NCBI GenBank assembly: GCA_051294375.1
Contig: CM119271.1
Coordinates: 6,003,991-6,067,990, forward strand
Source: Paraspadella gotoi
Lineage: Eukaryota > Animalia > Chaetognatha
Direction: 5' to 3'
DNA: 64,000 nt
Positions 9,092 to 64,000 of this stretch are shown here, piece after piece. Under the pieces are notes generated by a model. That model was not told the origin of the DNA. It saw nothing but the letters and a program-made list of their open reading frames with translations, and made no database searches. Numbering within the stretch: position 1 is the first letter of the stretch; each line of letters starts with the position of its first letter. The position numbers and the translations under genes are program-made.

Positions 9092-12000
9092 CTGAAACGC
9101 ATGACGGGTAAGAGGAGGAAAAATGTAATCTAAAAAATATAATTATATATAATATACTCTGGGAGTGAATAAACAAGACTGTGAGAGAGTCTTGATTGAA
9201 AAGCTTGCAGGGACCTGCTATGTCATTATCTTGTAAGAGTGATGGAGGCCTTAAAGCACCAAAGCCTGTCCAAAGTCAGGGGCAAGATGCTTATTTATTA
9301 AATGAATGGATAATTTTTGTATTGGTTGTACCAATTTCATATAAATAATATAATATAATGATGGAGGTCTTAAGCCACCAATGACTGTCCAAAGTCTGGG
9401 GCAAGATAGCTTTATGTTATTAAAATGAATCGATAATGATTATTTGGTTGTACCAATTTCATACTAAAGAAAAATACTTTAGGCTTGAACAGGTGGAACT
9501 GGTCCATTTTCTATGCATTATTGTTATTTCAAATTTTTTATGGGCGATTATCACTTAATTTCTCATTCCTAACTGGAGGCTCGTAAAAGGCAAAACCTGG
9601 ATATCGATGCTTCTAGCAAATAGAGACGAGAACGATTAATGGCCAACGAACCATGACTGACTGATATTGCTGGTGCTCAACCGTGATCTAACTGGTCAAA
9701 TTTTGAAGTCGGTGGCGTGAAAATCCCCGCAGACCTGTTTGTCGAATTCATGCATGGCTGGGGAAGATTTGGCAGAGAATGTAGTACCGGCAAATCCGAT
9801 GGGGATGCTTGCTGGAATTTACCTTTGTATAGGATTTTCGGTTTTTAAATTAAAGTTTTTTCGTTGTATTAAATCCTGCGCTTGACAGAAGAGATCCCCT
9901 TCCTGCAGTCTCCTTACACTATGGATGAGGATTTAAAGAAAAAAGTGGAGAACCCTCTGGTTTTTCTTCTGAAAAAAAACTCGCTCTTCTCATCTTCCTT
10001 ACTTTGTTCATCTTCTTATTGCAATTTTTTTATGTTTATTTTGTCACACGGACGTGAGTGTGAAGAATAAGTCTAGGGTAAAAATTTTTTTTTCGAAACT
10101 AAATAGTTGAAGAACTAACTTTGGTATAATCCTTTATGAGATACAACAGATAAATTATATAATTTGTTGACTGTTCTAATTTTTATTTTGTATTTGGCTC
10201 TTTTTGTTTAAAAAAAAAATTCTAAACCCCGCGTGGCGGATGCATTGTGTCACTTTTGAGACCCCCACACAACTCTTCAATTTTCAAAAAACATACGGAA
10301 AAGCCGGGTTTCATTCGTTCAAGGGTATGTGTATTTCTGTGGTGGTTGAGAAAAGCAATGATGCTCCATTGTGAAGTCGCATGCTTGTCAACACGTGAAA
10401 AAGAAAAAGTGAAAAAAATAAATAATCGGGGGGATAACCAAGGTGTGAATGAAAAAAGAGATTAAGTGAATTAAAAAGATACAATTGATAACGCAGACAA
10501 TGGTTCTTTTCCTCTTAACACAGAAATTTTTAGAAATTCGGATCTTGTTTAATGAAAAATTAAAAAAGGAATAGATACAAGAATGAATGGAAATGCGAAT
10601 ACAAGTGTTGATTACTCAGTGGTTGCTAATGACAAACAATTAATGCTGATTTCCAAAGAATACATGGAATCCTATGGATGGAATCTATTCTAATCATTGT
10701 TACGGCATAAAGTAAAGCTAGACTTGCCGTGTTGTGCGCAATTATCTTACGATAAATTTCCTATTAAATTGTATATATAAAAGTATACTAACATATTTAT
10801 GTAATTTTTTTGTTGTTTTAAGAAAGTATCTAACAACGTTATTTTTATGTTTGTGCCATTGAGTTATGGCTCTTCGGTCGTGATTTACTGACTTTAGTTC
10901 ATTTTTATCATTAGTTTTATGCGCGCGTATTGTTACGGAAAAGTGAGATTTTGAATCGGACTTAATAATATGATATTAAGGAAATTAGTTCTCACAAGAA
11001 GAATTTGGCCTCGCAATAGAATTTCGAATATCAATGTACTCGAGCTAATAGCAGAGAAAAAACGTTTTAGACCTTGCTTTCTTCTATTCAGGAATAAACA
11101 AGCAGACAGTCCAATACATTTCTTACATATTTCCTCCACAAGTAATACAGTCTTTACTCCTAATTCACGATTTCTGCATCGAATACTTTGATTTTCCGAA
11201 TTAGTAATTTATGTATTCATCGAAACTCCTAAAACGCAGTGGAAAAAACGTTTCTTTCGCTTTCCTCTTGTTTATTTTATTTAATACCGTTTACAACATT
11301 TGTCACTCGAGAATTACTTTCCCAAACAGAATGACTAATGTCCATTGCTAAAGATTCTCTGTTAGCAAATATAATCGTACAATTGATCCGCCAGAAAGGA
11401 AAAAAAACTTTTTCAAAGGACGCTTCGGTTGACTCGGCAAACGCAATTCGCTCTTCCTCTCCTCAGATTCAAAGAAGCGACGATCGATTTCCCTGTTCCT
11501 CGGAAATTCGTTCAGATGTACACGATTCACTTTCAATCCGAAGCTTGAATGTAACCGAGGCGTCTCTTCTTCCATCTCCTCCTATTCACATCATAACTTC
11601 CACTCTTCATCTTCCCATTTCTCTTTACGTTTTATATTCCAACCTTGTTCCACAGCCTTCCTCACTTTTCCACTCCTCATCTGCCAACCTTTTAATTTCC
11701 ACTCCTTTTCTTCCTCATTTATATTTCACTCCTATTTTTTTCTCCAAGGTATATTTCCAATTCTCATTTACTATTACTAATATATACTTTTGTAATTCCA
11801 ATCTGAGTCTTTCCACCTATCTTTTCACCCTGTACAATTCTTTTCCCATAATTTTTTTAAACATCATTACTTCCATCCTAGTCTTCCACATTTTTTATTT
11901 CAATTTCTTGATCTTTCCTCACTTTATCTTAAATTCCACTACTCCGTTTCTAATCTTTCCGCTACTAATCCTCGCAGTCCTTGCCAGTTTTGCTTCCTTT

Positions 12001-23807: not shown

Positions 23808-26800
23808 TTAAGCCGTCTCCAAGACGGTTGACTGCTTATGGATTGACTTGTCCTCTCCATCAGGCGACACCAAGGTGGTGGTGATATCCGCACCGGATCC
23901 CCAGCTCGAGCTGCCGCGCCAAACGACCTGGAAGGGCGGGTCGTCGACTGCGTCGGCCACGGCCGCCCAGACCTTGATCGTGCCACCGCTGGGCATGACG
24001 AAGCCCACGGGGAACCTGTAGACGAGTGCGTCGTTGTTGTCGACTTTGCGGCGGAGGGAGAATCCGTCGAGACTCTGGTCCTTGCCCTTCTTGTTCTCCA
24101 GCATGACGAAGGTGCCGTCGGGGCAGCACTCCGTGATGGCTACGGGACCCTTGGAGGATCTCTGGAAGGTCTTCTTGGAAGCCATCTCGCTCTTGGTGAC
24201 CATGACCTGTTGAGAGGCTCCGCCGGCCGAGGCCATGGCGGAGCTGGATGAGCTCTGGACCAACATGCCGCCGCCGCCGCCGCCGCCCGCCGCGGAGAGG
24301 CCGGCGCCCGCCGTCGTGTCCCTCAGGCGAGATTCTTCTCCCATCAAGAGGCGCCTGTAGGTGGCGATCTCGGCGTCAAGAGCCAACTTGCTGTCCATCA
24401 GCTCCTTCAGTTCGAGGATCTGAGCCGCTAATTGAGCCCGGAGCCGTTCGATCTCTGCCGCCTGTTGGGGATTGTGACCGATACTGGTATTTTAGTATAC
24501 ACATTAATTTATAATTGTTGATTCTGAGGTTTCTTATATATTTGTTGCCAATTTTAATTGTTATCTCATTTCTTATAGTTGACAAATATTGCTGTAGGTT
24601 CACATAAATTTTGTCGTTAAAAATGAATGTATGATTTTCCTAAAGTAATACTAAATATTTTCTTATATCCAAACACTTCTTGATTCTTCCAAATTTTGTT
24701 TAAATTCGGAATTTTATAATTTATGGTAAAAGAATAGCAATTAAAAAATGAATACAATCAAGTATTATGGCTCAAACTCGTGTACCTGATCGTCCGAGGC
24801 AGCCTCCTGATTCTTGTTGAGGAATTCCAACTCGGCCTCCAACTGCGCCACCCTCTCCAGCAACTCGGCGTTGTTGGCTCGAAGTCGCGAGATCTCCGCC
24901 TGCAGCTCCGAATATTTGGCGCGCGCGCGTTTGATCTCCTCTTTCGACTCGACGAGCTCTTGACCGGAGCGTTGAGACGTCGTCAGCATTTCGTTGAATT
25001 TCGCCTTTGAAGAGGAAAAGAGAGGAACAGGGTGAGAGAAAGAGCAGAGATACCTGGAAAAGGGAATGATAAAATGATGGGAGAGGTGCGGTTCTTAAGG
25101 GAGCTGGGATTTTTATCGTAGCTGACTGTTTGGGGACATCTTATACACTGTACAGTGTACACAAAGTAATTATTATTTTATTTTCATTTTTCTCAATTTA
25201 TCACCTAAATTTAAACGTTCAAGTTGTTTCTTATTGCTTTCATTCGTTGTCATTGGTTTTTTTTGTCTTCGCTTTCCAACATTGTTATTGCAATAAGGCA
25301 TATGCCTTTAGTTATGCATTTCCAAGCTCATTATTTGTGGACTGCAAGTCTACAGATATCTGACGCCCTTACGATTCTCCATTCCTCTCACCTTGTACCA
25401 CGAGTCCGTGTCGGCGCCCTTCTGCGACTCCAAGATAGCGTCGTATTCGGCGCGAATGTCCCTCAACGCCAAGGCCAACTCGTTGGAGAACATCGTCCTC
25501 CAGTCTTCCGAATCGAAGTTCATGTCCATCAGCTGGAAAAAGGAAGCTCGAAATTCAGCAACAAATCGGACAAAAAATCCAAACACGCTCATTCTTCGAT
25601 CTACTTTTCCGAAAGCGCCCCAATTCAGCCAAAATTTTTAATTAGGGGGTTTAAGGTTTAGTATTAGAAGATAAGGATTAGAATTAATGATTAGGTTTTG
25701 ATATTAAAGATTAAGTTAGCGTTAAAAATGAGTTTAAACATATTATTAAAAAATATTAGGGTGAAGAGACAGTAATTATTGTTATGTGTTAGTGATAGAA
25801 CCGTTCAATATAAGCAGTCCCTGAGCTTTGGATCAGGCTGTAACACCATGTTACAGGCGGGTTAAGCGCCCCGTCCCTCTTAACTGCCAGACGACCATCG
25901 GGCTAGAACCCCGGACCTTGGGGTTGGGAGGCGAATGACTTGCCTCCGGCACCAATGGCCGCTGATGAACAGTTGGTGGATTTTAGTTCACCATACATCC
26001 CCCCCCCGTAGGGAGAAGTCTGTTACATCTCTTCAGTGAATTGTTGTTGTTGGTGGAAAGTTCGTCACCAAGTTGAGGCATATCGCCTGATGTGTTGTGG
26101 GCGGAAAGTGCATCGCCAGGTTAAGGCATGTCGCCTGAAAGTGTTGTTGTTGCTGTTGTGTTCGGAAGTCGGGCTTACCAATGAAGAAACAGTAATTATT
26201 GTTATGTGTTAGCGATAGAACCGTTCAATATAAGCAGTCTCTGAGCTTCGGATCAGGCTGTAACACCATGTTACAGGCGGGTTAAGCGCCCCGTCCCTCT
26301 TAACTGCCAGACGACCATCGGGCTAGAACCCCGGACCTTGGGGTTGGGAGGCGAATGACTTGCCTCCGGCACCAATGGCCGCTGATGAACGGTTGGTGGA
26401 TTTTAGTCCACCATAAGGGTTAATTTTTAGATTTAAAATTAGGTTCAGGTATTACGAACAGAAATGAGCGCTTTCGGAAAATAGAGCCCATTCTCCCTCA
26501 CCTGACGAATCTTCTCCTCGTACATGTTCCTGAGAAAGTTAATCTCATCGTCTTTGGTCTGCACCATGGATTCGAGCTCGATGCGCGCCACGATCTCGGC
26601 GTCGGCCGCAGTCTTCGAGTCGCGGAGGTCGCGTTGGCTGCGCGCCAAGTCTCCCTTTGCGCGCGCGCACTCTCGCTCCAACGCGTCCACGGTTTTGGTG
26701 AGGTATTCGATCTGGGCATCGCGTTCCGAGATTCCCTTTTCTAAGGCAGGGAGGCGTTCCTGTGGTTTGGTTGTTTTTCGGTCTTTGTTTATTTTTAAAA

Positions 26801-28070
26801 GAAAAATTCCTTCTCAATAATTTGAATATTTATTCATTGACAAATAAAACATTTCACCGCGTGTCTATTCATTTATTATTCATCGATTGATATTTATTAT
26901 TCATTGCCTTTCCTTTTCAGCTCTCAGCTATTTGTCTTTGATCTCACTCTTTCTCTATATCTTTCCTTTTTTCTCGGGTCTTTTCTGTCAATTTAAAAGA
27001 TTTTTGTAATTTTGTTCACATTTTCCACTCACATGAACTTTGAATTGTTACATGTTTTTAAGAGTGGCCCCAGCATTGCGCCCACCTAAAATTGCACGCA
27101 CAGTATTCCGCGCACATGGGATTTCCGCAATGCGGCAATCCTATGAGGGCGCAACACAAATCGGAAATCGTTTTTATTACCTCATTGAAATCACTTTCAG
27201 ATCTCTCTTCGATTTAATTTAACGTCACTCTTCCTTCACCTTGGTGATGGCGTGCTCTCTGGCTTCCTCTGCGTACTTGGCCCGGACATCCGCCAACTCC
27301 TCCTCCAGCCTGGCCAACCTCAACTCCACCTCAGCTTTGGCTTTGGTTGTCTCGTCGATAGTCGATCGCGCCGCCGTCAGCTCAGATTCGTACATTTCCT
27401 TCAGCGTCACCTCGAGCTGCTCGAACTTAACCTAAAGTGAGAAGAAGGGTGAGGCTAGAATTGCGACATTATTGTTTTTTTGTTTTGTTTTTTTCCTTTT
27501 GAAACTGTCACTCTGTTTACTTTTTTTTGGTCTTTTAAATAGATGACGATTTTTTTATTAAATTTTATTGAATCCCCACGAGGCAATCGTTTTCGATTTC
27601 AATACACCTTTTTTTGGACATCATTTTTTGCCCAATCTATTAGCCAAAACATAATTAGTCTAATCGACTATCAACTAAATCTTAAAGCGTCATCCTCGTG
27701 TCAAAACCTTAAGCGTATCGATGATGGATTGAAGCCTCTTGTTGTCCGCCTCCAAGAAGCGAACTCTCTCGATGTAGGAGGCGAATCGGTCGTTGAGTTC
27801 CTGCAAGTCGCGCTTCTCCTTTTCGCGTTGGGCGATGACGGCCGAAGGGTTTGACGCCACCTCGCGAACCGCGGCTGGGTACAATAATTTAAAAAACCAT
27901 ACGTGAATAAAATTATATATTCTATCCATAATGATATTAAAAAAAAGTAATGGAATATTGCGGAAAGCAGCAAAGACGTGAAGACAATTCCACGTTTTCA
28001 ACGCTACTAATGCGAAGTTTGTATGATTTGGCGGTAATTTTGACCAATTTAATGTCTTTTGTTTTTGAGT

Positions 28071-28161
<91 letters not shown>

Positions 28162-28431
28162 ACTAAGTCATTAATTCCTCACCCACCCTTCCCCTTAACA
28201 CTCACCCGTGATGCCACCACCGCTTCCGCCCAGCGAAGCCAGCGCCATCCGCAGCGACATTCCGCCGCCGCCGCCGCCTCCGCCGCCGCCCGAGCGGGAG
28301 ATGCTGGACTGCGTGATGGACATGCCGCCGCCGCCCATGCCGCCCATGCCTCCTTTGCGGATGGAGATATCCCGCGGGCGGATGGAGGATTTGGTGGAGG
28401 ACTCGTACGAGTAAGATGTCGACATCGACAT
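23808..28431 (-). CDS. Cytoplasmic intermediate filament protein with lamin-tail domain, 7 exons (28206-28431, 27708-27874, 27240-27431, 26502-26759, 25392-25532, 24786-25004, 23808-24461), 618 aa
   Basis: Coil 1a LQELNDRFASYIERVRFLE, coil 2 end KLALDAEIATYRRLLMGEESR, Ig-like tail (FVMLEN...YRFP...IKVW...WGSG...LVSPDGE); all junctions GT-AG and in phase; no CaaX or basic NLS so not a lamin. Confidence 0.95.
25814..25887 (-). ncRNA. Twister ribozyme fold, type P5, in 3' LTR
   Basis: Same as 26234-26307 but loop UCCAAAGC gives one T1 mismatch and P4 is CCUGA/UCAGG. Confidence 0.6.
26234..26307 (-). ncRNA. Twister ribozyme fold, type P5, in 5' LTR
   Basis: GCAGU UAAG AGG GA CGG GGCGCU UAA CCC GC C[UGUAACA-UGG-UGUUACA]G C CUGA UCCGAAGC UCAG AG ACUGC; T1 CGG/CCG intact, P2 weak; predicted cut between 26284 and 26283. 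Confidence 0.7.
26311..26382 (-). promoter_or_regulatory. tRNA-derived (Gly-like) segment with Pol III A and B boxes inside the LTR (also 25891-25962)
   Basis: GCGGCCAT/ATGGTCGT acceptor-like stem, TGGTGCCGGAGG A box, TTCGCCTCCCA, AGGTC variable loop, GGTTCTAGCCC B box; anticodon stem does not pair so not a functional tRNA. Confidence 0.65.
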
Positions 28432-29092: not shown

Positions 29093-29123
<31 letters not shown>

Positions 29124-31338
29124 TTGGGAGAGATTAAATTGGTCACGGTAAACATGGCTGGATTGGTTGGGTTAAAAAAAAAATAGATGTAGAAATAAAA
29201 AAACGTGAGTCGTAGTTTTTCAGAGTAATCATTGAAGAAAGGACCTTAGCTTATATTTGAATTGCTTTCATCCTTTGCTTGCCGTAAAAAAAAATTAGGA
29301 ATGTTATTCTTAAAGTTTTATTTCTATTAATGTAAAATAAATAAAATAAAATAAAATCAATAAATAAAATAAATAAAACGGATTCTATTTTAAATCTGAG
29401 GTGTAATCTCTCTCTGTTTTTCTAACACTCTCTTTCTCTCTCTCTCTCTTTGACTGCCTGGTTGACCCAGACGAAACTATGAGGGTTCGTCGTCAACATT
29501 AATTAAAATAATCCGGCGCCGTTGTTGTTGCTGTTGTCGTTGTTGTTTTCTCGTCCTCGTCGTTTATCAAAAAAATTCGTTGATCTTCGCCGTCGAGTCA
29601 TCGTCGATCGTTAAAACTGAAAAGACGACAGATTTTAGTTTTTTTGTTCTTCATTTTTTAAATCCTTTCTTATTCATCTCTCCCTCTCTCTCTCTCTCTC
29701 TCCCCCTCTCTTCCTCTCTCCCTTCATCTCTTCATAGTGCCGTATTTCTTTAAAGAACGTTTTTATCATTTATCTTTAGACTTTACTTGACGTGTCTTTA
29801 ATTTTCTCTCTCTCAAAAAAAAAAATCCTTAAACCAAACATTCTATACATACATTTCTTTCTCCTTTCTTTTTAAATCCAGCCTCCTCCTTTAAACGTGA
29901 AAAAACGTCCTCTCCATCGAAGGGATGGCATCACCCTCAGAAAAATGTCGCAAATTGGATGGCAAATTGGATGGCATCACTCTCAGAAAAATGTCACAAA
30001 TTAAAACGAGTTTACTGATTCTAACATCTCTGTGTCTTTTACTTCTTTTTTTAATTTTTTAAGTCTTTTACAGTATAAATCTAAGTTTTGAAGAGACAGT
30101 AATTATTGTTATATGTTAGTGACAGTCCCTGAGCTTCGGATCAGCCTGTAACACCGTGTTACAGGCCTGTTAGGCGCCCCGTCCCTCTTAACTGCGGGCT
30201 AGAACCCTGGACCTTTGTGTTGTGTTGACGAATGATTTGCCTCCGGCACCAATGGCCACTGATGAACGGTTAGTGGATTTTAGTCCACCAGTTTCTTGAA
30301 ATTCTGCATGATGCATTTTACAACAAAATTCTTTCAAGAGTTTTTTTATTTTTTCTTTTTGTTGCAAAAAATAAAACAAAAAAGAAAATGAACTGAACTT
30401 CGTCTCTTTAATAACTGCTCACAATGTATGGTTTTCCAAGGTTATATTTTCTTAGTCAGTTAAAAGGTTTTCCAAAATATTATTTAAAAAAAATGAAACA
30501 AACCAGAAACTCAGTCTTAACTTTTTTTTTTCACTGTAGAACAAAGAATTTCATTGTGAATCGTCATTCGAAAAATTCGTGAGTCTAAATTGAAAAGGAA
30601 GTGAAATCCGGAGGATGAGAAGAAAACGCCCGAATCTTCTTTGTACAGGCGATTCAAAAAAAAAGAGTGAAAGGATACATAAAATGCATATTGCATACTG
30701 CAAATAATACACAGATAATGCCAATATGGCGCCCGAGAAAGCGGTGGATCTCACTTGTTGACGTTACAGATCAATGATATTAACTGTCGCGGTTTAACAC
30801 GCACTGTCACGCTTCGCCAACAAAGCCGGAGACCTCCGGGAATAAACCCGGAACTCTCAAATAGTGGGTTAGACTACCGGTTTGTGGCGATTCCGTGGCC
30901 AATGGAAAAAGTCATTTTCCCTCCCATGACTGTTGAGCATGTCAAGGTGGCCAGCTCGCCGTGATTATAAACTGTTATTTAACTATGTAAAAAATGCATC
31001 ATGTTGATTTCGTCGATTGCTCTCTGAATCGCCGGATCGGTCTACAGTCGGCATGCTGACTTCCTTCAGATGCCCTTGCCGCTCGGAGGTCAGACCGACG
31101 CTTTCGAAAAGGGCGTCGCGAAAATTGAGCTGTTGTATGTCATAAAAAAATTGACTTGTATGTAAGAATATTGAATTTTTTAAAAAAACTTTTATTTGTC
31201 TTTTTTTTAACGTTTTCGACTTTGAAGGAATAAAAATGTTTGGTTCGGTTTTTTGATCGCGCGCGATCGCTCGCATTGAGAACGATGAGCGAAGTGAGAG
31301 AAGAATACGAGAGAGAGATAGACAAGAGAGAGATTTAA

Positions 31339-31371
<33 letters not shown>

Positions 31372-33095
31372 GAGAGCAGAGAGAGATCGGTGAGCGGTCT
31401 TAAACGAGGCCTACCATTTTTACGTAGCCTCAGGCAAAAATTCATCATCGCTGTATCATTACATTTTCCCCTCCTCCTCATTCTCCTCCATCTTGGCTAC
31501 CAAAACCTTTTTTTCTTGTTTTTGTGTAATTTTGTATTTTTGTTTTTTTTATTTTTTTGAGGAGAAAATTATTTTTTGTACCAACACCGATTTCATAATC
31601 TAATTTTTTTGAGGCCCGGTAAACGGCGATTCATGGGCTCCTACCGCCGTCCCGCCCCAAATCCTACAGGGTGTATTCAAAGTGTTACCAAAAGTATGAA
31701 TAGTGAAAAGTACGTATTTTCTGAAAAAAAACTTTTTTTCTTAACTATGTAATGATAAAAAGAAATATCCTCTTCAAATAACTTTTCTGAGAAATATAAA
31801 TTAAATTATTCCATCAAACATATATTGAATTAAATTAAAATTATTTCAATTTCATTTATAGTTTTTTTTTATTCAATTTTTATTCAAGCCTATGTGTACA
31901 AAATGTACAAATGTGTGCACATACACATAGTTTCTCTGACTCACGTCTCAAATTAAATGTCTTAAATTGTCTCACTCCCCTTCCTTAGAAATCAACTCTA
32001 TCTCTCCCTCACTTCTCCCTNNNNNNNNNNTTTATTCAAGCCTATGTGTACAAACTGTACAAATGAGTACACATAGCTTCTCTGACTCACGTCTCAAATT
32101 AAATGTCTTATATTGTTTCACTCCCTTTCCCTAGAAATCAAATCTATCTCTCCCTCTCTTCTCCCTCTTTCCTTTATCCTCGTTCTCAGATAACGGAAAC
32201 AGATAAACTCGAATTATTCCCCTGAGTTCGATTGTAAAAAATCGTAATCTGAAATAATAAAGNNNNNNNNNNNNNNNNNNNNNNNNNCAAAACTGAAACA
32301 ACGCTTTTGTCCATCAAGGCAATAAATGTTTCTTGTTGATAGTGAAGTTCATTTCTTTCTTTTAATTCTGCTTTATTATTTCAGATTACGATTTTTTACA
32401 ATCGAACTCAAGGGAATAATTCGAGTTTATCTGTTTCCGTTATCTGAGAACGAGGATAAAGGAAAGAGGGAGAAGTGAGGGAGAGATAGAGTTGATTTTC
32501 TAAGGAAGGGGAGTGAGACAATTTAAGACATTTAATTTGAGACGTGAGTCAGAGACAACTATGTGTAACACATTTGTACATTTGTACACATAGGCTTGAA
32601 TAAAAAAAATAAAGATAAATGAAATTGAAATAATTTTAATTTAATTAATTCAATATATGTTTGATGAAATGTTTAATTTATATTTCTCAGAAAAGTTTTA
32701 TCGACTACTGAGTATTCTTAAGTACATATTTAAGTGACAAAGAAGTTTTTTTTCAGAAAAATAACGTACTTTTCCAATTCATACTTTTTGTAACACTTTG
32801 AATACACCCTGTAGGATTTGGGGTGGGACGGCGGTAGGAGCCCATGAATCGCCGTTTACCGGGCCTCAAAAAAATTAGATTATGAAATCGGTGTTGGTAC
32901 AAAAAATAATTTTTCTCCTCAAAAAAATAAAAAAAAAAAAAATACAAAATTACACAAAAACAAGAAAAAAAGGTTTTGGTAGCCAAGATGGAGGAGACAT
33001 GAGGAGGAGGGGAAAATGTAATGATACAGCGATGATGAATTTTTGCCTGAGGCTACGTAAAAATGGTAGTGCCTCGTTTAAGACCGCTCACCGAT

Positions 33096-33165
<70 letters not shown>

Positions 33166-35111
33166 ATCTCTCTCTCACTTCCTCATCCGTTCTCCAATGC
33201 GAATTCAATGCGAGCGATCGCGCGGCGATCAAAAAAACCGAACCAAACATTTTTATTCCTTCAAAGTCGAAAGTTAAAAAAAAGACAAATAAAAGTAAAA
33301 AATTCAATATTCTAACATACAAGTCAATTTTTTTATGACATACAACAGCTCAATTTTCGCGACGCCCTTTTCGAAAGCGTCGGTCTGACTCCGAGCGGCA
33401 AGGGCATCTGAAGGAAGTCAGCATGCCGACTGTAGACCGATCCGGCGATTCAGAGAGCAATCGACGAAATCTACAACATGTACTAATGCAAATTTTTTAC
33501 ATATTTAAAATAATAGTTTATAATCACGGCGAGCTGGCCATCTTGACATGCTCAACAGTCATGGGAGGGAAAATGACTTTTTCCATTGGCCACAGAATCG
33601 CCACAAACCGGTAGTCTAACCCACTATTTGAAAGAGTTCCGGGTTTATTCCCGAGAGGTCTCCCGCTTTGTTGGCCAAGCCTGACAGTGCGTGTTAACCG
33701 CGACAGTTAATATCATTGATCTGTAACGTCAACAAGTGAGATCCACGCTTTCTCGGGCGCCATATTGGCATTATCTGTGTATTCTTTGCAGTATGCAATA
33801 TGCATTTTATGTATCCTTTCACTCTTTTTTTGAATCGCCTGTTACAAAGAAGATTCGGGCGTTTTCTTCTCATCCTCCGGATTTCACTTCGTTTTCAATT
33901 TAGACTCACGAATTTTTTCGAAATGACGATTCACAATGAAATTCTTTGTTCTACAGTGAAAAAAAAAGCTTAAGACTGAGTTTCTGGTTTGTTTCATTTT
34001 TTTAAATTAATATTTTGGAAAACCTTTTTAAACTGACTAAGAAAATATAACCTTGGAAAACCATACATTGTGGCAGTTATTAAAGAGACGAAGTTCAGTT
34101 CATTTTCTTTTTTGTTTATTTTTTGCTTTGAAAGAATTTTGTTGTAAAACGCATTATGCAGAATTTTAAGAAACTTTAGATTAGATACTGTAAAAGACTT
34201 AAAAGATAAAAAAAGAAGTAAAAGACACAGAGATGTTAGAATCAGTAAACTCGTTTTAATTTGCGACATTTTTCTGAGAGTATCATAATTGCATCCATTC
34301 ACATTCGAATGAGAGAGAGGACATTTTTTCACGTTTAAAGGAGGAGGCTGGATTTAAAAAGAAAGGAGAAAGAAATGTATGTATAGGAATGTTTGGTTTA
34401 AGGATTTTTTTTTTTGAGAGAGAGAGAAGATTGAAAGACACGTCAAGTAAAGTCTAAAGATAAATGATAAAAGCGTTCTTTAAAGAAATACGGCACTTTG
34501 AAGAGATGCAGGGAGAGAGAGAAGAGAGGGGGTAGAGAGGGAGAGAGCAGCAGAGAACAGAAGAGATGAATAAGACAGGATTTAAAAAAATCCGTCGTCT
34601 TTTTCAGCTTTAACGATCGACGATGACTCGACGAGCGAAAGATCAACGAATTTTTTTGATAAACGACGAGGACGAGAAAACAACAACGACAACAGCAACA
34701 ACACGGCGCCGGATTATTTTAATTAATGTTGACGACGAACCCTCATAGTTTCGTCTGGATCAACCAGGCAGTCAAAGAGAGAGAGAGAGAAAAAGAGAGT
34801 GTTAGAAAAACAGAGGAGATTACACCTCAGATTTAAAATAGAATCCGTTTTATTTATTTTATTATTGATTTTTATTTTATTTTATTTATTTTACATTAAT
34901 AGAAATAAAACTTTAAGAATAACATTACTACTACTATTTTTTTTTTACGCAAGCAAGGATGAAGCAATTCAAGATATAAGCTAAGGTCCTTTCTTCAATG
35001 ATTACTCTGAAAAACTACGACTCACGTTTTTTTATTTCTACATCTATTTTTTTTTTAACCGGGCAGCACCAATCCAGCCATGTTTACCGTGACCAATTTA
35101 ATCTCTCCCAA

Positions 35112-35140
<29 letters not shown>
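29093..35140. repeat. Inverted duplication with ~3 kb arms centred on the gaps at 32021-32287
   Basis: atgcttgggagagattaaattggtcacgg at ~29120 is the reverse complement of ~35085-35115, and homology continues to the centre; arms differ by substitutions and indels. Confidence 0.95.
30089..30290 (-). mobile_element. Solo LTR of the 25762 family with degenerate twister (30123-30195)
   Basis: TGAAGAGACAG...TAGTCCACCA flanked by GTTT on both sides; absent from the other arm (empty site at 34171-34174). Confidence 0.9.
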
Positions 35141-35155
<15 letters not shown>

Positions 35156-38919: not shown

Positions 38920-40135
38920 TTTATGTTTCATATTTATCGTGCCGTCGACAGGTTTAGTTATTGCCCCCAAAAATCATTATGTATGTAACTCTCTTATGTT
39001 TCCCTGCTGTTTTTATAGCAAAAAGGTTTTCGAACCTTCGCGTAAAACGCACAAATTCAGAAATGCAGCGCCCGCGTAATCGACAAATTAAGAGAAATTT
39101 TAAATCGTTACAAAAAATTTTAAAAACTAATATTTTCAAGTATCCTAAAATTGTCAATGCGACGAGGGATATTGCTACCCAGATATGAAACGCCATTCGA
39201 TTCTTGAATATGTTTCATATTTATCGTGCCGTCGACAGGTTTAGTTATTGCCCAAAAAAATTTATTATGTATGTAACTCTCTTTATGTTCCCTTGCTGTT
39301 TTTATAGCAAAAAGGTTTTCGAACCTCGCATAAAACGCACAAATTCAGAAATGCAGCACCCGCCGGAATCGAACGATTAAAAGAGATTTTAAATTGTTTC
39401 AAAAAATTTTAAAAACTAATATTTCAAGTATCCTAAAATTGTCAATGCGACAAGGGATATTGCTACCCAGATATGAAACGCCATTCCGATTCTTGAATAT
39501 GTTTCATATTTATCGTGCCGTCGACAGGTTTAGTTATTGTCCAAAAAATTCATTATGTATGTAACTCTCTTATGTTTCCTTGCTGTTTTTATAGCAAAAA
39601 GGTTTTCGAACCTTCGCGTAAAACGCACAAATTCAAAAGCAGCGCCGCGGAATCGACGAATTAAAAGAGATTTTAAATTGTTTCAAAAAATTTTAAAAAC
39701 TAATATTTTCAAGTATCCTAAAATTGTCAATGCGACGAGTGATAGTGCTACCCAGATATGAACGGCATTCGCTACCTGAGGTGCTTATAACCATTTCCAT
39801 TCTTGAATATGTTTCATATTTATCGTGCCGTTGACAGGTTTGTTATTGCCCAGAAAAGTTCATATGTATGAATTGGTACAACCAATATAAAAATTATATG
39901 TATGTAACTCTCTTATGTTTCACGGCTGTTTTTAAAGCAAAAGGTTTTTGAACCTTCGCGTAATCGACGAATCGACGAATCAATAGAAATTTGAAATCGT
40001 TTTAAAAAATGTAAAAAAACTAATATTTACAAGTATCCTAAAATTGTCAATGCGACGAGTGATATTGCTACCCAGATATGAAACGACATTCGCCGCCTTG
40101 AGGTGCTTTTAAAACCATTTCCAGATTCTTGAATT
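38920..40135. repeat. ~290 bp tandem repeat, about 4 units
   Basis: tatgtttcatatttatcgtgccgtcgacaggtttagttattg recurs every ~290 bp. Confidence 0.93.
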
Positions 40136-43768: not shown

Positions 43769-44996
43769 TATGTTTCATATTTATCGTGCCGTCGACAGGT
43801 TTAGTTATTGCCCCCAAAAATTCATTATGTATGTAACTCTCTTATGTTTCCCTGCTGTTTTTATAGCAAAAAGGTTTTCGAACCTTCGCGTAAAACGCAC
43901 AAATTCAGAAATGCAGCGCCCGCGTAATCGACAAATTAAGAGAGATTTTAAATCGTTACAAAAAATTTTAAAAACTAATATTTTCAAGTATCCTAAAATT
44001 GTCAATGCGACGAGGGATATTGCTACCCAGATATGAAACGCCATTCTGGATTCTTGAATATGTTTCATATTTATCGTGCCGTCGACAGGTTTAGTTATTG
44101 CCCAAAAAAATTTATTATGTATGTAACTCTCTTATGTTTCCCTGCTGTTTTTATAGCAAAAAGGTTTTCGAACCTTCGCATAAAACGCACAAATTCAGAA
44201 ATGCAGCACCCGCGGAATCGACGAATTAAAAGAGATTTTAAATTGTTTCAAAAAATTTTAAAAACTAATATTTTCAAGTATCCTAAAATTGTCAATGCGA
44301 CAAGGGATATTGCTACCCAGATATGAAACGCCATTCCGGATTCTTGAATATGTTTCATATTTATCGTGCCGTCGACAGGTTTAGTTATTGTCCAAAAAAA
44401 TTCATTATGTATGTAACTCTCTTATGTTTCCTTGCTGTTTTTATAGCAAAAAGGTTTTCGAACCTTCGCGTAAAACGCACAAATTCAGAAATGCAGCGCC
44501 CGCGGAATCGACGAATTAAAAGAGATTTTAAATTGTTTCAAAAAATTTTAAAAACTAATATTTTCAAGTATCCTAAAATTGTCAATGCGACGAGTGATAG
44601 TGCTACCCAGATATGAAACGGCATTCGCTACCTTGAGGTGCTTTTAAAACCATTTCCTGATTCTTGAATATGTTTCATATTTATCGTGCCGTTGACAGGT
44701 TTAGTTATTGCCCAGAAAAGTTCATTATGTATGAAATTGGTACAACCAATATAAAAATTATATGTATGTAACTCTCTTATGTTTCACGGCTGTTTTTAAA
44801 GCAAAAGGTTTTTGAACCTTCGCGTAATCGACGAATCGACGAATCAATAGAAATTTGAAATCGTTTTAAAAAATGTAAAAAACTAATATTTACAAGTATC
44901 CTAAAATTGTCAATGCGACGAGTGATATTGCTACCCAGATATGAAACGACATTCGCCGCCTTGAGGTGCTTTTAAAACCATTTCCAGATTCTTGAA
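43769..44996. repeat. ~290 bp tandem repeat, about 4 units (second copy)
   Basis: Same unit; ORF track shows near-identical peptides at a 290 bp period. Confidence 0.93.
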
Positions 44997-45721
44997 TTGC
45001 CGAAGGCCGATCGCCGCCATAAACGTCAAAGATCATTCAACCAGATGACGGGATAAGTTAGTTTATTTTACTTTTATTTTTTTAAATTGTTTCTTTCGGT
45101 TTTTCCCACAACTAAACTCACCGTTTTCCTATTTTACTTTTATCATTTAGTCTTATTTGTTTGTTTATTTTTCATCGATTATATCAAAATCTCGATCATT
45201 GTTGCTTTTTTTAATTGTTTTATTATTTTTTTTTTCGCTTTATACGTAGTCGACGTTATGTCCTATTTATCTCAAGTCGGAATCTCTCGAGAAAAAAAAA
45301 ACCTTCAAACATGTCGTTTCCCTTTTTTTTTCGCGCTCTCCAAAGCCGAGGAATATCGATCGAGGCGCCCTCTCCTAACCGCAGCCTCACACCTCGACGC
45401 GAAGACGATCTGGTCGCTGCGCCGTCACGTTTGGTCGAAATTTATCAGGGAGTGCGAATTCAATGTAACGCTGAGGGCTGAGCCATTACTATTATAAGAC
45501 AAAGATAATAATTGAAATGAAAAAAACGGTAACAACATCTGTTTTACTTGACTGATAAAAAAAACTACAACTCATCGCATTACATAAAATTTACATTATC
45601 CTATATCTTCATCTAAATTCTCATACAGTAAGGCTTCGCAAAAGCAATGCACTCGTTTCTGGTAATGCGCTTGCCACACCAAAACACTCTGGCTTCCACT
45701 TTCTAATCTCCACGCCAAGAT

Positions 45722-48700
45722 TCAATTGGTGTTGAGCATAAGACACACCCCTTGCAGGATCCAATGGCTGGAGTGTTCGGTCGTAAAGAGGTCGGCTTCG
45801 AAAACGAGACCGACTCCCATAGCGTTTCGTCGGTCGGAAGTGGTGTAGACCGGAGTACGAAGAGTGTTCTTAGGAAAAGAGAAAATGAGTACCTTTGTTA
45901 TATTCTGATTAACTCTACTTAGTACTTAATACAAGGGAAATACTTTTTTTTTTGACTGTTCGGATATTTGATAAGATAAGATATGCGTTTTTTTCGTTCA
46001 CAACAAATTTTTGAAAAAGAACATTCAATATTCCATTCACACACACAAAAATAATTGCATTAATTGATTTTTTTACAATTGAAAACAATGTAAATAATAA
46101 ATTAAAGAAGCATAGGTAACCCCAGCCCCCCCAAAAAAAATTGAGTTAACTACGTACAATCAGCTAAATGACTAAATTTTTATAACGCAATATAATTTAG
46201 TACAACTGAAACATTCCTTGAAAAATTATACTACTTCAGAGATAGGGAGGCCAGGTACTCTGGGAGTGAATACACGAGACTGTGAGAGAGTCTCGATTGA
46301 AAGCTTGCAGTATCCTGCTATGTTATTATCTTGTAATAGTGATGTCCGAAGTCACGGAAAATATTTATAGAAGATTTATTGAATGAATGAATAATTTTAT
46401 ATTTCAATTTCATAATAAGAAATACATGAGTCTTCAATTTTTAAATATCATAAGTCGGAAAAATCATATGTCATATATCATATGTCACTTTGCTGTCATT
46501 TGACTAATAAAATAATATAATATAATAATATAATAATCAAGTCGTGCAATCAGAGACCTTTCTATATGTATTATTATGTTGTGTCATTGAATCCTTTCAT
46601 TGAAATGGCTAAATTTAGTATTCTTTCAAATAAGAATTTAAAATATTTTTTTATCTTAATTTGATTCAAATCCGTGCAAACAAAGCACCTGCAATTTGAG
46701 ACGATGACTCTCGATCGGAATGACTTTGAGGATGGGCAGCTCCTTTATCAGCTCCTTGGGTAGGGATCTCTCCAACCCCCCAATCGCGTAGTTCCATCCT
46801 GCGCCTTCCAAGTAGAGTCCGCGGACGTATGAACCTAATAGAAAAAAATATGAGTGTGATAAATTCGCTTAAAGATTCTCGTAAAAAAGGGCTGAAATAA
46901 GGAATAAGGTTTTTCAAAATAATTTAGAAAAAACATGTCCGTTATTATTGTTTCAAATAAATCGTTGTTGAATTCATTTCAAACTTTTCTCTAAATCTCA
47001 ACCGCAACGAAACGAAAGGATTATAATGTCTACAAAATAATTAGATTCGAACGGAGTCATTTAAAGTGTTTACAATTTTAAAGAACGGGACATGTTTTTA
47101 AGAAAAAAAATTGTTCAGTAAAAAAGTAACATTAATCCAAACGCAGTATTTTACACAAATATGCAAATGAGATTTAGGAACTTATAACATTATAACATTA
47201 TGTAACTTATTACATTATGTAAATTCTTTAATTAAGACTAGGAGAGCGCGCTATAATCCGTCAAAATTGTCACGTACCCGAGTGCGATCGTTCTTGAATC
47301 TCATCCGCCGATCGAAACTGCGTCACGGAAGTGTACAGCGTCGACTTGTCGAGAGGCCAACCGTTTCGTCGACACGTCGCTTGCACCAACGCTGTCAGGA
47401 ACGACTCTGGGATGTGGAGGCCGGAAAGCCAGATGACCGCCGGTTCGCCTTCGATCACCTAGAAGGAACGAGACGGGATTTTCTCTCTCTCTCTGTTTCG
47501 CTGAAGTTTAAATAAACGAGTTGCGTCCACACGAGCCCCTTATCAAATTTTTTACCTCATCGAGTTAAGGGATCAATAAACCCTTACAGCAACAAGACTA
47601 CTTTTCGACAGCACATTTTTTTCCCTTCAGTTCCATTAGTTTAATATATTTGACCTTTAAAGAGTTCTGAACATTAGGCTTTTCTTCCTAATTTTTTTCT
47701 TTTAAATTTTCAATATTTCTTTAATGTTTAATAAGTGGAAGGAGTGAAATGGGGTGGGCCTTAAAAATATTAATAAAAGCAGCATGAGTGTTGACGGTTT
47801 TTTCCTTAAAGTTTCCCCAGAAACAATTTTTTTAGGTTTTCCATTATCAGTTACTACAGTATAAATTTCTTTTAAATTGCTCGTACCACTCTTAAATTTT
47901 TATTCGTCAAACAAAAGAGGTAAGTTTAATAATAACGCTGTCTTTGGTCTTTAAGTTTTAAAATTTATTAAAGATTTTTGAATGATTAAATTTTACAGCA
48001 TCATTTGCAGCATCAGCAGCATTTACAGCATCATAGTTGATCGGCTCACATTGATACAAAATAATTAAACTACTTCATGATAATTTGAAACCGACCGCAA
48101 AAAGAAAAATGGTCACAATTTTTTTTCAAAATAGTCCTGCGATATTATTCCCTTTCTTCCAAAACTAGAGTAAACTAAACATAATGACATAATAAGAAGT
48201 CACGATATGTATATTAAGGTGGATCGAGTAAGGAGTTAAGGTTTACCTCTCGGTTATTTCGTTACTAGTCATGGACGAGAATGAAAATATAAAACTGTGG
48301 CGAATCCTAAATTCGACTCCCGTATAGCTTGGTGAAACTCAGCTCGTCCCTTTGGCTTGGACAGCTAAGTAGTAAGTACTCATTCACCAACCGTGAGTTC
48401 CGGGTTCGATCCCCTCACGGTCACGCTGGTTAAAGTGTGATGGTGTCGGCATAAACACGCCAGAGATATGGTGAGGTCACTGCAGGTCCAAAGCCCTGAG
48501 TGCCAGCTGTTGGGAGATGCCTGACACCCCAGGCATCATACATGTCCCTCCGTTGCCATAAAACTAACTTTTTATAACTATTACACACATTAGGCATTTT
48601 TAACTATATGCAAATTATAATATGCAAATGAGATTAAGATACATAATTTAATTTAATTAATTTAATTCGATTTTTTTTCTTTCTCCTCTTTATGTTCCTC

Positions 48701-53241: not shown

Positions 53242-55063
53242 ATTTCTTGTACTGATCGTATCTGGCCAGAAGATGCACCATCCAGTTTCCCAGACTCTTC
53301 AACGTCGCAGGCGCCAGTCTTCGCCAGATGAAAGGAATCTGCCCGTTGTACAGGCATCTAAAGAAACGAGATCGAGAATTGGGGAAACGTTGCGACCACG
53401 TTATTTTAACGGCTACTGATTATTGATTATTGATACGTCCATGGTGCCTTTGCGCCATCGTATGGGTGTCACTAGGCGTTACAAAAATTACGCTAGTCGG
53501 TCGATCTTAATCATCACCTGGCGACATCGTCCAACTCGTTGCTCATCCCAACTTCTCCTGCGAGCGCCTGCGGTAGTAAAAATATTGATGACGGACTTTT
53601 TTTAAGGAATAAGAAAGCTTTAACTTATACTGTGTTAAATCTTCGTTACATATGCTTTTTTTTTTCGTATTTAATATAAAAAATAAGAAAATTTACACGA
53701 TCTACTCTCACTTCTAATAAACCAATAACGAAAATAGAAAACTAGTTAAACAATTTTGAAGAATAGTGAAACCGGAGCATGGATCGAAATTCTAAGGTCA
53801 ACAGCGTCAACAGGTCTCAAGAGCCCTCTCGCTCACCCTCCTCAAATTGATAATGGAGAAGCGCATGCGCGTCAAGAGTTTGTTGAAGCGTTCGATCTCT
53901 TGCAGCAGCACCACCGTCGTCGGGTGGATGTCGATCCCGTACTTTTTCCGGATCTCTTCGTACTTGAAATTTTCCGGGAGTTTCTCCAGGATGTCTCTGA
54001 GAAGGCGAGCATCAGTCGAAACGAGGTCACGACGGACGTCTTTGTATTTGTTGTTGTCGGCGTTAGTCACCGATTTTAAGACTCACTTGGCGATCAAATC
54101 GATGAAGTCTTCGCGCGAGATCTTTGATCCGCTGTCGCCAGTTTGCGGTTGAAGCTCAACCTAAGATCAAAGTGGGTCATTGCTCAGAATTATAATAAAT
54201 AATATCCAATTATGGAAAATCTATTTTAATATTAAAATATATTACCACTTATCAGTTATCACGGTAACGTGATCTCTGGGAAAAGTGACTGCAGCGCAAT
54301 TACGCAATTACCGTTTTTGTTAATTAATTGTAAGTCAATTAAATACAAGACGACCAAATAAAAAAAAAAAAAAACTACGCACCATGTGTTGCCAGGTATC
54401 GCGCGCTGCTTTGGTAAAGTAGCCGATCTCAGCGTTCGGATGCAGACCGAACACGTCGGGCTTGTTTGCCAGCGGTAGCGATTCGATGTATTCTAAAGAG
54501 GAGCCGACAAATTCATCAAGTTTATCCTAATTATCATTATTACTATTACAAACAAAATATCGTCACCCGTGTAAAGTTCCTTGACGAATTTCCCGTCCGT
54601 CGGCTCCGGAATTTTGTAATCGACCGTGGCGTCGTGATAAAAGTGAAAAGGTTGAAAAGTGTCGAAGAGGAAATCCCCCATGTATTCGTCCATGTAGGTC
54701 ATCACCACGCGGCGATCGAAATCGTCGATGACCCGACCGCCGTACATCACCTGGGGTGCGAGTGTGGGGCAAAGATGTGACGGTGGAATGGAGTGATGCA
54801 GATCTTAATGCAGCTCTTGGGAAAACTTTCGTTCTCTCCCTCTCTGTCGCTATCTTTCGCCCTCACTCTCACTCACTTTTACCTCGCCTATTAAATATTT
54901 TAAGCTATTCCACGGGATCTTGGGTTCGTTGTTCTGATGCGCTTTCGTCAAGTAAGTGTTGAGGATCGTCATGCAAACTCGGAAATCCGAGTCGTTAAAA
55001 TCGTAGCAGATGTTCCAACCGATCTTATCGTACTTGCGACGTTCCTGAGGACGTAGAGACGTT

Positions 55064-62450: not shown

Positions 62451-63099
62451 CTGACCGAGACAAACGTCGTTGTCATTCTTATCAATAAATGTTTAGTACT
62501 TTTTTTTTTATCACTAAGATTTTTCGAAGATTTTTTACGTATATCGTACATATATATATATCGTTTACAAGATTCTAAATGATTTCAATAAAGATGAGTA
62601 ATGCTCTCCAGCATGGTTGAAAACAAAAAGATGTGGCACAGCTTAAAGCTGCTCAGCTGGCTGTCCGTCCCTCAGGCCCTCGTCTCAATGGTGAGCAGGC
62701 TAAATCTATTATATCCGATCCTGCGTTGCGTCGGTTAAATCCCTGGGTATTCGCGTTCTGGCTTAAATGTGACGGTGCGGTATGGAAATGCAGTGACAGG
62801 AGCGGTGCAGGTAGGGTCCGCAGCCCTACGCCAGTGGTGAGATACGGCCTGGCCCACGCGGTATCACAGGCTATCCTCCCGTTGCCCATAATATAATATA
62901 TATATATCGTTTACAAGATTCTAAATGATTTCAATAAAAGATGAGTAATCTCTACCAGATGGTTGGAAAACAAAGAGTGTGGCAGCAAGACTAAAGCTGC
63001 CTCACTGCTGTCCGTCCTCAGCTCGTCTCAATGCGTAGCAGGCCTAAATCATCTCATTCCATCCGTGCGTCCCGGGTTCAATCCCTGGTATCCCGGTTT

Positions 63100-63180
63100 C
63101 TGGCTTAAATGTGACGGTGCCGGTATAAACATGCCAGTGACAGGAGGCGGTTCACTGAGGGTCCGCAGCCCCTACGCCAG
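63100..63180 (+). ncRNA. Twister ribozyme, type P5 (array unit 2)
   Basis: CUGGC UUAA AUGU GA CGG UGCCGGUA UAA ACAU GC C[P3]G AGGG UCCGCAGC CCCU AC GCCAG; predicted cut 63126/63127. Confidence 0.85.
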
Positions 63181-63443
63181 TTGGTGAGATACCCCGCGCC
63201 CCGGTATCACAGGCTATCCTCCGTTGCCATAATATTATATATATATATCGTTTACCAGATTCTAAATGATTTCAATAATAAGACGAGTAATCTCTACCAG
63301 ATGGTTGGAAAACAAAAGAGTGTGGCAGCAAGACTTAAAGCTGCCTACTGCTGTCCGTCCTCAGCCTCGTCTCAATGGCTGAGCAGGCTAAATCATCTCA
63401 TTCCATCCGTGCGTCCGGGTTCAATCCCCGGGTATCCCGTGTT

Positions 63444-63524
63444 CTGGCTTAAATGTGACGGTGCCGGTAATAAACATGCCAGTGACAGGAGGCGGTCACT
63501 GAGGGTCCGCAGCCCCTACGCCAG
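63444..63524 (+). ncRNA. Twister ribozyme, type P5 (array unit 3)
   Basis: As unit 2 with perfect P3 CAGUGAC/GUCACUG and one extra A next to P1; units 1 (62758-62834) and 4 (~63810-63892) are noisier. Confidence 0.75.
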
Positions 63525-64000
63525 TTTGTAGATACCGCGCCCCGGGTATCACAGGCTATCCTCCCGTTCCATAAATATGATATATATATATATCGTTACA
63601 AATTCTAATGATTTTCAATAAAAGACGAGTAATCTCTACCAGATTGGTTGGAAGACAAAAGAGTGTGCAGCAAGACTTAAAGCTGTCCTCACTGCGTCCG
63701 TCCCAGCCTTCGTGCTCAATGGGTTGCTGGCTTCAGCAGCGCTCATATCATCTCATTCCGATTTCCGTGCGCGTCTCCGGGTTCATCCCGCGGGCTATCC
63801 CGGGTTCTCGGCTTAAATGTGACGGTTGCCGGGTCTACAAACATGCCAGTGACAGGAGGCGGTCACTGACGGTCCCGCAGCCCCTACGCCGAGTTGGTTG
63901 TATATTATCTTTCCCTGCCTTCTGGGTATCTACAGGCTAGTCCTCTTGTTGTTGCCATAAATTATATTATATATATCGTTTACATAGATTTCTAAATTGA

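Follow-up and report, generated by a model that had tools for sequence, protein, structure and literature searches.

The element and its insertion site

The window analysed here is a 64,000-nucleotide stretch of contig CM119271.1 of the chaetognath Paraspadella gotoi, with positions counted from its first letter. On its minus strand, within an intron of an intermediate-filament gene, lies a noncoding element of 654 bp (25762..26415) that is bounded by two long terminal repeats (LTRs), has the size of a terminal-repeat retrotransposon in miniature (TRIM) and carries a motif of the twister ribozyme class in each LTR. Repeat comparison places the 5' LTR at 26182..26415 and the 3' LTR at 25762..25995 (both on the minus strand, which is the orientation of the element), each 234 bp long; the two are spaced by 420 nt and differ by six mismatches, all of them transitions. 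The target-site duplication (TSD) reads AGGG on both the left (25758..25761, plus strand) and the right (26416..26419, plus strand). A TGG-initiated primer-binding site (PBS), TGGTAAGCCCGAC, occupies 26168..26180 on the minus strand, one T away from the 5' LTR, and a polypurine tract (PPT) of the form G9-A occupies 25998..26007 on the same strand, with TG (25997-25996) between it and the 3' LTR. The internal region (25996..26181, minus strand, 186 bp), for which a role in packaging is a guess, includes CAA-rich linkers and, at 26045-26147, 2.1 copies of a 48-nt unit. By frame inspection this region has no open reading frame (ORF), and the longest ATG-started frame in the whole element measures 40 codons. 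A first-pass annotation made from the sequence alone had proposed the paired LTRs with their six differences, the 4-bp TSD, the PBS, the PPT and the lack of an ORF; all were confirmed, with the LTRs at the same place. In its length below 1 kb, paired LTRs, noncoding character and LTR-adjacent PBS and PPT, the element agrees with TRIMs, whereas its termini are TA...CA rather than the TG...CA of that group. A reading of the LTR as 232 bp with TG...CA ends and a 6-bp TSD is ruled out by the family ends in contigs described below.

The host intron (25533..26501, minus strand, with limits deduced from GT/AG and reading frames) holds the element in sense orientation. The gene itself extends over 23808-28214 on the minus strand and encodes Filament and lamin-tail (LTD) domains, and a protein search matched its product to intermediate filaments at identities of up to 76% with most of the query covered. 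The insertion site is a degenerate TTAGG-like, T/A/G-rich intron tract (25640-25761 and 26416-26450), and a contig spliced at the 26494 junction, from a close paralog or an allele, was seen in one sequencing run (X9).

Copies, subfamilies and a candidate helper

The family was surveyed by aligning contigs of public sequencing runs to the element, which was found in nine runs, all of the same organism and drawn from three studies; four runs (X1, X2, X5 and X9) were followed in detail, and the best-matching runs may come from the window's own sample. None of the runs is recorded as RNA; X9, which may be, contains contigs of the element that count neither for nor against its expression. Contigs of this kind give no RNA ends, level or strand, and the sequence of a circle junction equals LTR sequence. 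In all four runs, contigs exit the element into unlike sequence at 25760-25762 on one side and 26415-26416 on the other. Left exits were seen in at least 220 contigs of run X2 (166+34+20), at least 223 of X1 (157+39+27), at least 96 of X5 (68+16+12) and at least 47 of X9; right exits numbered at least 226 (110+116), 191 (99+92), 79 (40+39) and 43 (22+21), respectively. About 200 different flanks per element end occur among the contigs listed. Since the flank consensus ends in ATAT on the left and begins with NTAT on the right, the TA terminus belongs to the element and the targets are ATAT-like 4-mers. The contigs of four runs thus support the first-pass reading of a nonautonomous LTR element of miniature size, dispersed in many copies whose ends are precise and whose targets measure 4 bp. 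The family is also young and homogeneous; in run X5, 12 LTR positions vary at 2% or more, six of which are near-fixed differences from the window copy. Joints that skip the whole element were absent among the 15 of 128 that were listed. Summed contig depth is several-fold higher over the LTR than over the internal part, which would fit many solo LTRs and is not a copy number. Runs X10 and X11 contributed two and one near-identical low-depth contigs and X12 none, so that these runs offered no cross-species covariation.

An older subfamily is represented in the window by a solo LTR (30089..30290, minus strand) with TG...CA ends and the TSD GTTT. Its site is empty, with a single GTTT, near 34171 in an inverted paralogous segment, which belongs to an inverted segmental duplication (29093-32020 / 32467-35142, 88-91% identity). 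Relative to the full element, the solo LTR has two deletions, and its 5' end is 2 nt shorter than that of the young family. The TG and TA 5' ends suggest that end processing shifted between the subfamilies.

The majority PBS of the family has C at 26176 (plus strand), where the window copy has T, and is an exact match to the tRNA-Trp PBS of CsRn1-clade Gypsy elements, which make 4-bp TSDs (PMC2582038). A CsRn1-like Gypsy is the likely helper class, judging by this sequence match. The Gypsy-like partner postulated in the first-pass annotation is hence narrowed in class, whereas no autonomous element was found in the window or in metagenome scans. A metagenome scan for the LTR end plus PBS returned 116 loci, none of which matched beyond 24 bases, repeated the LTR end or carried a reverse-transcriptase motif, and these loci were treated as chance matches rather than as the partner.

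A type-P5 twister motif in each LTR

By sequence, each LTR carries a twister-class motif that descends from real twisters. The type-P5 motif of the 5' LTR (26232..26309, minus strand) was identified by a structural descriptor, by a covariance model (30.4 bits) and by folding, and that of the 3' LTR (25812..25889, minus strand) by the covariance model (27.1 bits). In the 5' LTR, P5 pairs 26307-26302 with 26240-26235 over 6-7 bp, P2 is formed by GAGG (26299-26296) and CCC (26281-26279), P3 has 8 bp and P4 closes an 8-nt loop (26252-26245). One pseudoknot, PK2, joins CGG (26293-26291) to CCG (26251-26249), and the other, PK1, joins GC (26278-26277) to GC (26246-26245); both are intact in the 5' LTR, the solo LTR and the family majority. 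P1 amounts to at most 1-2 bp, short of a helix. The core elements GA-CGG, U^AA, GC and the loop UCCGAAGC are all present, in line with the first-pass annotation, which had read GA-NGG, UAA, GC and the loop in each LTR; the 3' LTR copy has them with one PK2 mismatch. The solo LTR retains the core, with P2 broken. By the twister consensus, the general acid would be A26283, followed by A26282, and the general base G26295. The predicted U^A cleavage sites fall at 26283..26284 in the 5' LTR and 25863..25864 in the 3' LTR (both minus strand; consensus in PMC8501958), and cleavage at both would yield a 420-nt monomer without terminal redundancy (25864..26283, minus strand), as deduced from the sites and from folds.

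A tRNA-like head and related units in the window

Directly upstream of each twister lies a decayed tRNA-like head (26310..26381 in the 5' LTR and 25890..25961 in the 3' LTR, both minus strand), which ARAGORN at relaxed settings calls a Gly|Trp pseudogene. Neither this head nor the tRNA-plus-twister units described below appear in the first-pass annotation. It has a 7-bp acceptor stem, a 5-bp T stem and a broken anticodon arm, together with A-box-like (26374-26363) and B-box-like (26330-26320, GGTTC type) sequences, and is predicted from these to act as an RNA polymerase III (Pol III) promoter. The cloverleaf appears only at the relaxed threshold of 80 and is gone at 81, and no tRNA was called at the head by ARAGORN default settings or by Rfam. 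Among 3000 shuffles, nine gave a tRNA call with a B box and 273 gave any call. The A box, TGGTG...AGG, stands at the expected distance and departs from the TRGCY...YGG consensus (PMC10886601). The B-box pattern occurs seven times on the two strands of the window, and in six cases a twister follows closely: in three LTR copies, in two units of a family A and in one of a family B.

Family A is a tandem repeat of about 344 bp in 3.9 copies (62550-63997, plus strand), in which a tRNA-like B box is followed by a type-P5 twister (62756-62836, 63098-63182, 63442-63526 and 63806-63894, plus strand); an AT run lies between the units, and many small indels distinguish the copies. With a twister as its ribozyme, the repeat resembles animal non-LTR retrozymes or promoter-plus-ribozyme short interspersed elements (SINEs). 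Family B is a single unit (48331-48590, plus strand), 67% identical to the family A repeat, with a tRNA-like head (48345-48424), a perfect B box and a P5 twister of canonical appearance (48424-48508) that shows compensatory changes in P2 and PK2. The twisters of both families have a 4-bp P2 and a short P1. Because blastn found no similarity between the LTR unit and families A and B beyond the shared layout, these families are relatives of the source and not the source itself. The LTR probably acquired its tRNA and twister by capture of a SINE unit.

A third twister-like family (1772-1832 and 9228-9288, plus strand) has no P3 and replaces the GC/GC pseudoknot with AC/GU. Rfam scored it with the P5 model at 25.8 bits (E 0.32), and a 119-bp partial duplicate follows it. 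Related repeats at 41429 and 46256 are devoid of the core.

Tests of the twister assignment

The Rfam twister-P5 check proposed with the first-pass annotation failed: no twister match was obtained at the element at E values up to 10. As a positive control, all eight type-P5 twister ribozymes of viral contigs (phage motifs L048-L055) were scored, at 42.6-56.4 bits. Rfam was likewise silent, at E values up to 1, on five family A and B twister motifs of the window, and since it misses these too, its silence at the element is no refutation. A P5 descriptor that allowed a 3-nt P2 strand recovered the 5' LTR motif, all eight phage controls and three further motifs of the window, which belong to families A and B. 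In its stricter version, which required a P3 of at least 6 bp, it matched nothing in 1.3 Gb of random sequence at a GC content of 0.37 and nothing in 1.6 Gb at 0.52. In viral contigs, none of the 20 pattern-only matches with a 3-nt P2 strand had a 4-bp P4. The viral-contig pattern loci as a whole (20 + 27 + 5) were set aside as chance-like, with a 4-bp P4 in 1/47; Rfam matched 0/20 and 0/5 of them, the 27 others lying outside the Rfam scan. The tRNA-like pattern had no locus in the viral contigs, nor did the twister core in a metagenome scan.

A covariance model was trained on four family A/B twister motifs of the window, that is, on non-LTR motifs, with roughly calibrated E values. Outside families A and B, the LTR copies scored best, with 30.4, 27.1 and 15.5 bits for the 5', 3' and solo LTR, the next match reaching 13.2 bits; the E value of the 5' LTR twister was on this rough calibration about 1e-5. 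The model did not retrieve six phage motifs. In an alignment of nine motifs, both sides have changed in 17 of 24 pairs, and pairing is retained in 94% of cells, compared with 27-40% in slid controls. Additionally, a variable PK2 pair that was not fitted is CG in six rows and UA in two, and is broken only in the 3' LTR of the window copy.

Other assignments were rejected. The sR38 and TMV matches of Rfam at the element (E 2-3) were taken as chance. On the plus strand, a hammerhead suggested by CUGAUGA lacks its GAAA partner, and a reading akin to the hepatitis delta virus ribozyme turned out on inspection to be a plain hairpin; Rfam is silent on both. No hammerhead match was obtained by Rfam at the element, which thus departs from LTR retrozymes in this respect.

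Relation to known elements

With a tRNA-derived head in both LTRs, the element comes close to Helenus, the TRIMs for which a TRIMp3 group has been proposed (Kojima 2024, PMC10886601). Both are shorter than 1 kb and ORF-free, with two LTRs, a PBS and a PPT, and they share a 4-bp TSD as in animals, a tRNA sequence with a GGTTC B box in the LTR, solo LTRs and a Gypsy-type PBS. Unlike Helenus, the element has a twister after the tRNA head, a TA instead of a TG 5' end, and an A box that is off TRGCY. For Helenus, an origin by insertion of a SINE into an LTR and mobilization by Gypsy helpers have been suggested, and Pol III transcription is unvalidated (PMC10886601). The main text of that account contains no mention of twister; its parts 1, 5, 6 and 7 of an 11-part supplement showed no twister by eye, and in the Helenus consensus file six loop-4 octamers hit six places, none of them in a twister context as judged by eye.

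In its genetic layout, the element resembles the LTR retrozymes of plants (Cervera 2016, PMC4918200), which are nonautonomous, carry a ribozyme at the same place in both LTRs, a PBS, a PPT and a 4-bp TSD, depend on a Gypsy helper, comprise a predicted monomer between two cut sites and have a ribozyme that is partly blocked in the folded RNA. These plant elements differ in having a type III hammerhead, a tRNA-Met PBS, a size of 600-1000 nt and demonstrated circles, whereas the present element has an animal host, a twister-P5, a tRNA-Trp PBS, a predicted 420-nt monomer and a tRNA head. In the literature covered, LTR retrozymes have been described in plants only and with hammerheads only. Animal non-LTR retrozymes and the promoter-plus-hammerhead SINEs of Schistosoma (PMC7229834, PMC6765202) are likewise small repeats in which a promoter precedes a ribozyme; animal retrozymes, however, have type I hammerheads and no LTR, PBS or PPT (PMC7229834). 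It is families A and B that look like twister counterparts of these repeats.

A reduced-P1 twister in an animal retrotransposon is known from the T-variants of Perere-3 (Liu 2021, PMC8501958), an autonomous non-LTR RTE element with one ribozyme at its 5' end, as opposed to a P5 permutation in paired noncoding LTRs. The twister-P5 family of Rfam (RF02684) shares with the LTR motif the strand order and the conserved GA-N-GG, UAA, GC and UCCNAAGC; the motif differs in having no 8-bp P1 hairpin, a 3-nt P2 strand and a long P3, and it lies below the Rfam thresholds. CsRn1-clade Gypsy elements resemble the family in the tRNA-Trp PBS of its majority, the 4-bp TSD and one noncanonical LTR end, although they are autonomous and the altered end is the 3' one (PMC2582038). 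As far as these sources describe them, links between twisters and retroelements in eukaryotes have been non-LTR (PMC8501958, PMC7761336). Literature searches, with most subscription journals and Repbase outside their scope, found no description of a twister in an LTR, in agreement with the first-pass annotation, which knew of no animal LTR element built on twister. Each part is known singly, and the combination, in effect a Helenus/retrozyme hybrid, appears to be new.

A possible circle route

Starting from what is observed, namely the anatomy, the many precise insertions at 4-bp targets and the twister architecture, we infer a sequence of steps that would make the element an animal LTR retrozyme built on twister, in which a captured tRNA-plus-twister SINE sustains a 420-nt circle route via a CsRn1-like helper. 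This is our preferred though tentative reading, held with somewhat less confidence than would make it probable. As far as sequence goes, each LTR carries a motif predicted to self-cleave, and the layout of an LTR retrozyme is present. The miniature LTR element would have taken both its promoter and its processing ribozyme from the captured unit. Pol III would start transcription at the tRNA head, and the twisters of both LTRs would cut the transcript to release a 420-nt RNA (26283-25864) without the R repeat. Twister cleavage leaves 5'-OH and cyclic-phosphate ends, which an RtcB-type ligase could close into a circle. Since the strands of the P5 permutation lie on either side of the cut, the ribozyme would re-form completely in that circle, and a short P2 together with a competing hairpin may slow it enough for circles to persist. 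A tRNA-Trp would then prime reverse transcription across the circle junction by the CsRn1-like helper, with no first strand transfer, and the helper would also integrate the DNA copy. A circle route has been documented for plant LTR retrozymes (PMC4918200, PMC7761336, PMC5680766), and RtcB circularizes monomers of animal retrozymes in vitro (PMC7229834).

Were the ribozyme active in both LTRs, twister would gain a defined genomic job, a SINE module would have turned a TRIM into a retrozyme, and a circular RNA with tandem twisters would exist naturally in an animal. Should the circle route be true, retrozyme life cycles would have arisen independently in plants, with the hammerhead, and in animals, with twister, and a single genome would contain the SINE-like source families together with their LTR product. 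Even a silent motif would be a record of SINE capture into an LTR, the origin proposed for Cassandra and Helenus, with relatives of the captured source visible 20-40 kb from the element. The window also reveals a group of P1-short P5 twisters that escapes detection by Rfam.

Prospects of cleavage and alternative readings

Comparison of the young family with the solo LTR shows no difference at 53 core and stem positions of the twister, namely every catalytic and pseudoknot base (17) and every stem position of P3, P4 and P5 (36), whereas 10 of 128 positions in the remaining sequence differ (one-sided p 0.028). Within 26235-26307, the sole change at 2% or more in run X5 is at position 26268 of the P3 loop, leaving aside the private 26240 of the window copy. 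In assays of about 1950 natural twisters, defects in P1 and P2 were tolerated and those in pseudoknots or catalytic bases were not (PMC11662667), and mutagenesis of a rice ribozyme agrees as to tolerated P1 and P2 imperfections (PMC5113685). P1 has been found dispensable (PMC5113685, PMC11662667), though twister is inefficient without it (PMC8501958). From the sequences, measurable cleavage by family-majority copies seems reasonably likely; the solo LTR twister is probably dead, and the 3' motif of the window copy is probably impaired.

Several observations weigh against the circle route. The 5' strand of P2 has 3 nt where the Rfam consensus has 4, so that P2 falls short of 4 bp, and it pairs as two Watson-Crick pairs and a mismatch or as three pairs with a bulged A. 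P2 is also without conservation, 2/7 of its positions differing between the young family and the solo LTR. The 3' LTR of the window copy reads UCCAAAGC, with a private G>A at 25829 that costs one PK2 pair, the window letter at this position being the minority in all four runs. The twister-compatible fold lies above the minimum-energy fold by 7.7 kcal/mol in the 5' LTR and 15.4 in the solo LTR, compared with 2.0-3.6 in family A, 8.7 in family B and 0.5-2.5 in six phage twisters (values for secondary structure, with pseudoknots left out), and a GGGGCG/CGCC hairpin competes with it. With a weak P2, a competing fold and a damaged 3' copy, none of which the first-pass annotation had noted, efficient cutting in both LTRs becomes less likely. 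The conservation test was post hoc and draws mostly on the decayed tRNA arm (8/62); the rest of the LTR alone gives 0/53 against 2/66. Because the nine aligned rows are related, model-fitted and compared between families, their covariation says more about where the motif came from than about whether it is active now. Finally, no reverse-transcriptase, integrase or gag motif, and hence no partner, was found in the 64-kb window.

In an alternative reading, the ribozyme would be a silenced passenger: the SINE would have been captured for its Pol III promoter, cleavage would have damaged the template, and the short P2 and the hairpin would have disabled the twister, leaving a Helenus-type TRIM with a linear RNA. 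Young family and solo LTR alike have the 3-nt P2 strand, no stem other than P2 lacks conservation, the fold gaps are as given above, and in a young, homogeneous family intact stems need little selection. Moreover, Helenus elements move with no reported ribozyme, so none is needed, which counts against the circle route as well, and the element is inserted in the sense direction within an intron of a gene represented in run X9. On the other hand, the 17 catalytic and pseudoknot bases and the 36 stem positions were kept while the tRNA anticodon arm decayed, and P2 defects were tolerated in the large assay of natural twisters (PMC11662667). We consider loss of function unlikely, though a serious competitor to the circle route.

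Less likely still is a middle course, in which a slow but active twister replaces the Pol III terminator and forms the 3' end of a linear RNA template, circles being at most by-products. With a cut in the 3' LTR alone, the transcript would retain roughly 100 nt as an R repeat (26381-26284), and ordinary LTR reverse transcription could follow. Consistent with this, many published Helenus LTRs have, by eye, a T-rich tract after the tRNA part, where the twister stands here; the element strand is without a T4 run; and a weak P2 with a competing fold would fit partial cutting. However, the local sequence is the same in both LTRs, with nothing obvious to favor the 3' cut, and the fish Helenus LTRs inspected also lack the T tract, with no twister seen in them. 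The absence of T4 is itself not significant, being shared by 327/2000 shuffles, and lends no weight to the circle route either.

A SINE dimer or Penelope-type repeat that mimics an LTR element could account for the SINE-like head and the one noncanonical end (TA), and is very improbable: the ends are fixed on both sides in four runs, the targets measure 4 bp, the PBS is separated from the 5' LTR by 1 nt and the PPT from the 3' LTR by 2 nt, and the solo LTR is flanked by a 4-bp TSD. A chance resemblance to twister, for which the silence of Rfam at the element might be cited, is almost negligible in view of the empty result in 2.9 Gb of random sequence, the rough E value of the independent model, and the order of B box then twister in two other families, which Rfam also misses.

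Further features of the window

The top tRNA-like call in the window (Thr) lies at 54382-54459 on the minus strand, at a relaxed threshold of 92 and so below the ARAGORN default, and may be a pseudogene or a SINE head. A tandem repeat of about 290 bp in 3-4 copies occurs at 38922-40134 and 43769-44997, with no ribozyme motif by descriptor or Rfam. Two tandem segmental duplications (465-7909/7911-15554 and 37875-42567/42711-47373, 93-95% identity) may be real or may represent uncollapsed haplotypes; a gap of N letters splits the second.

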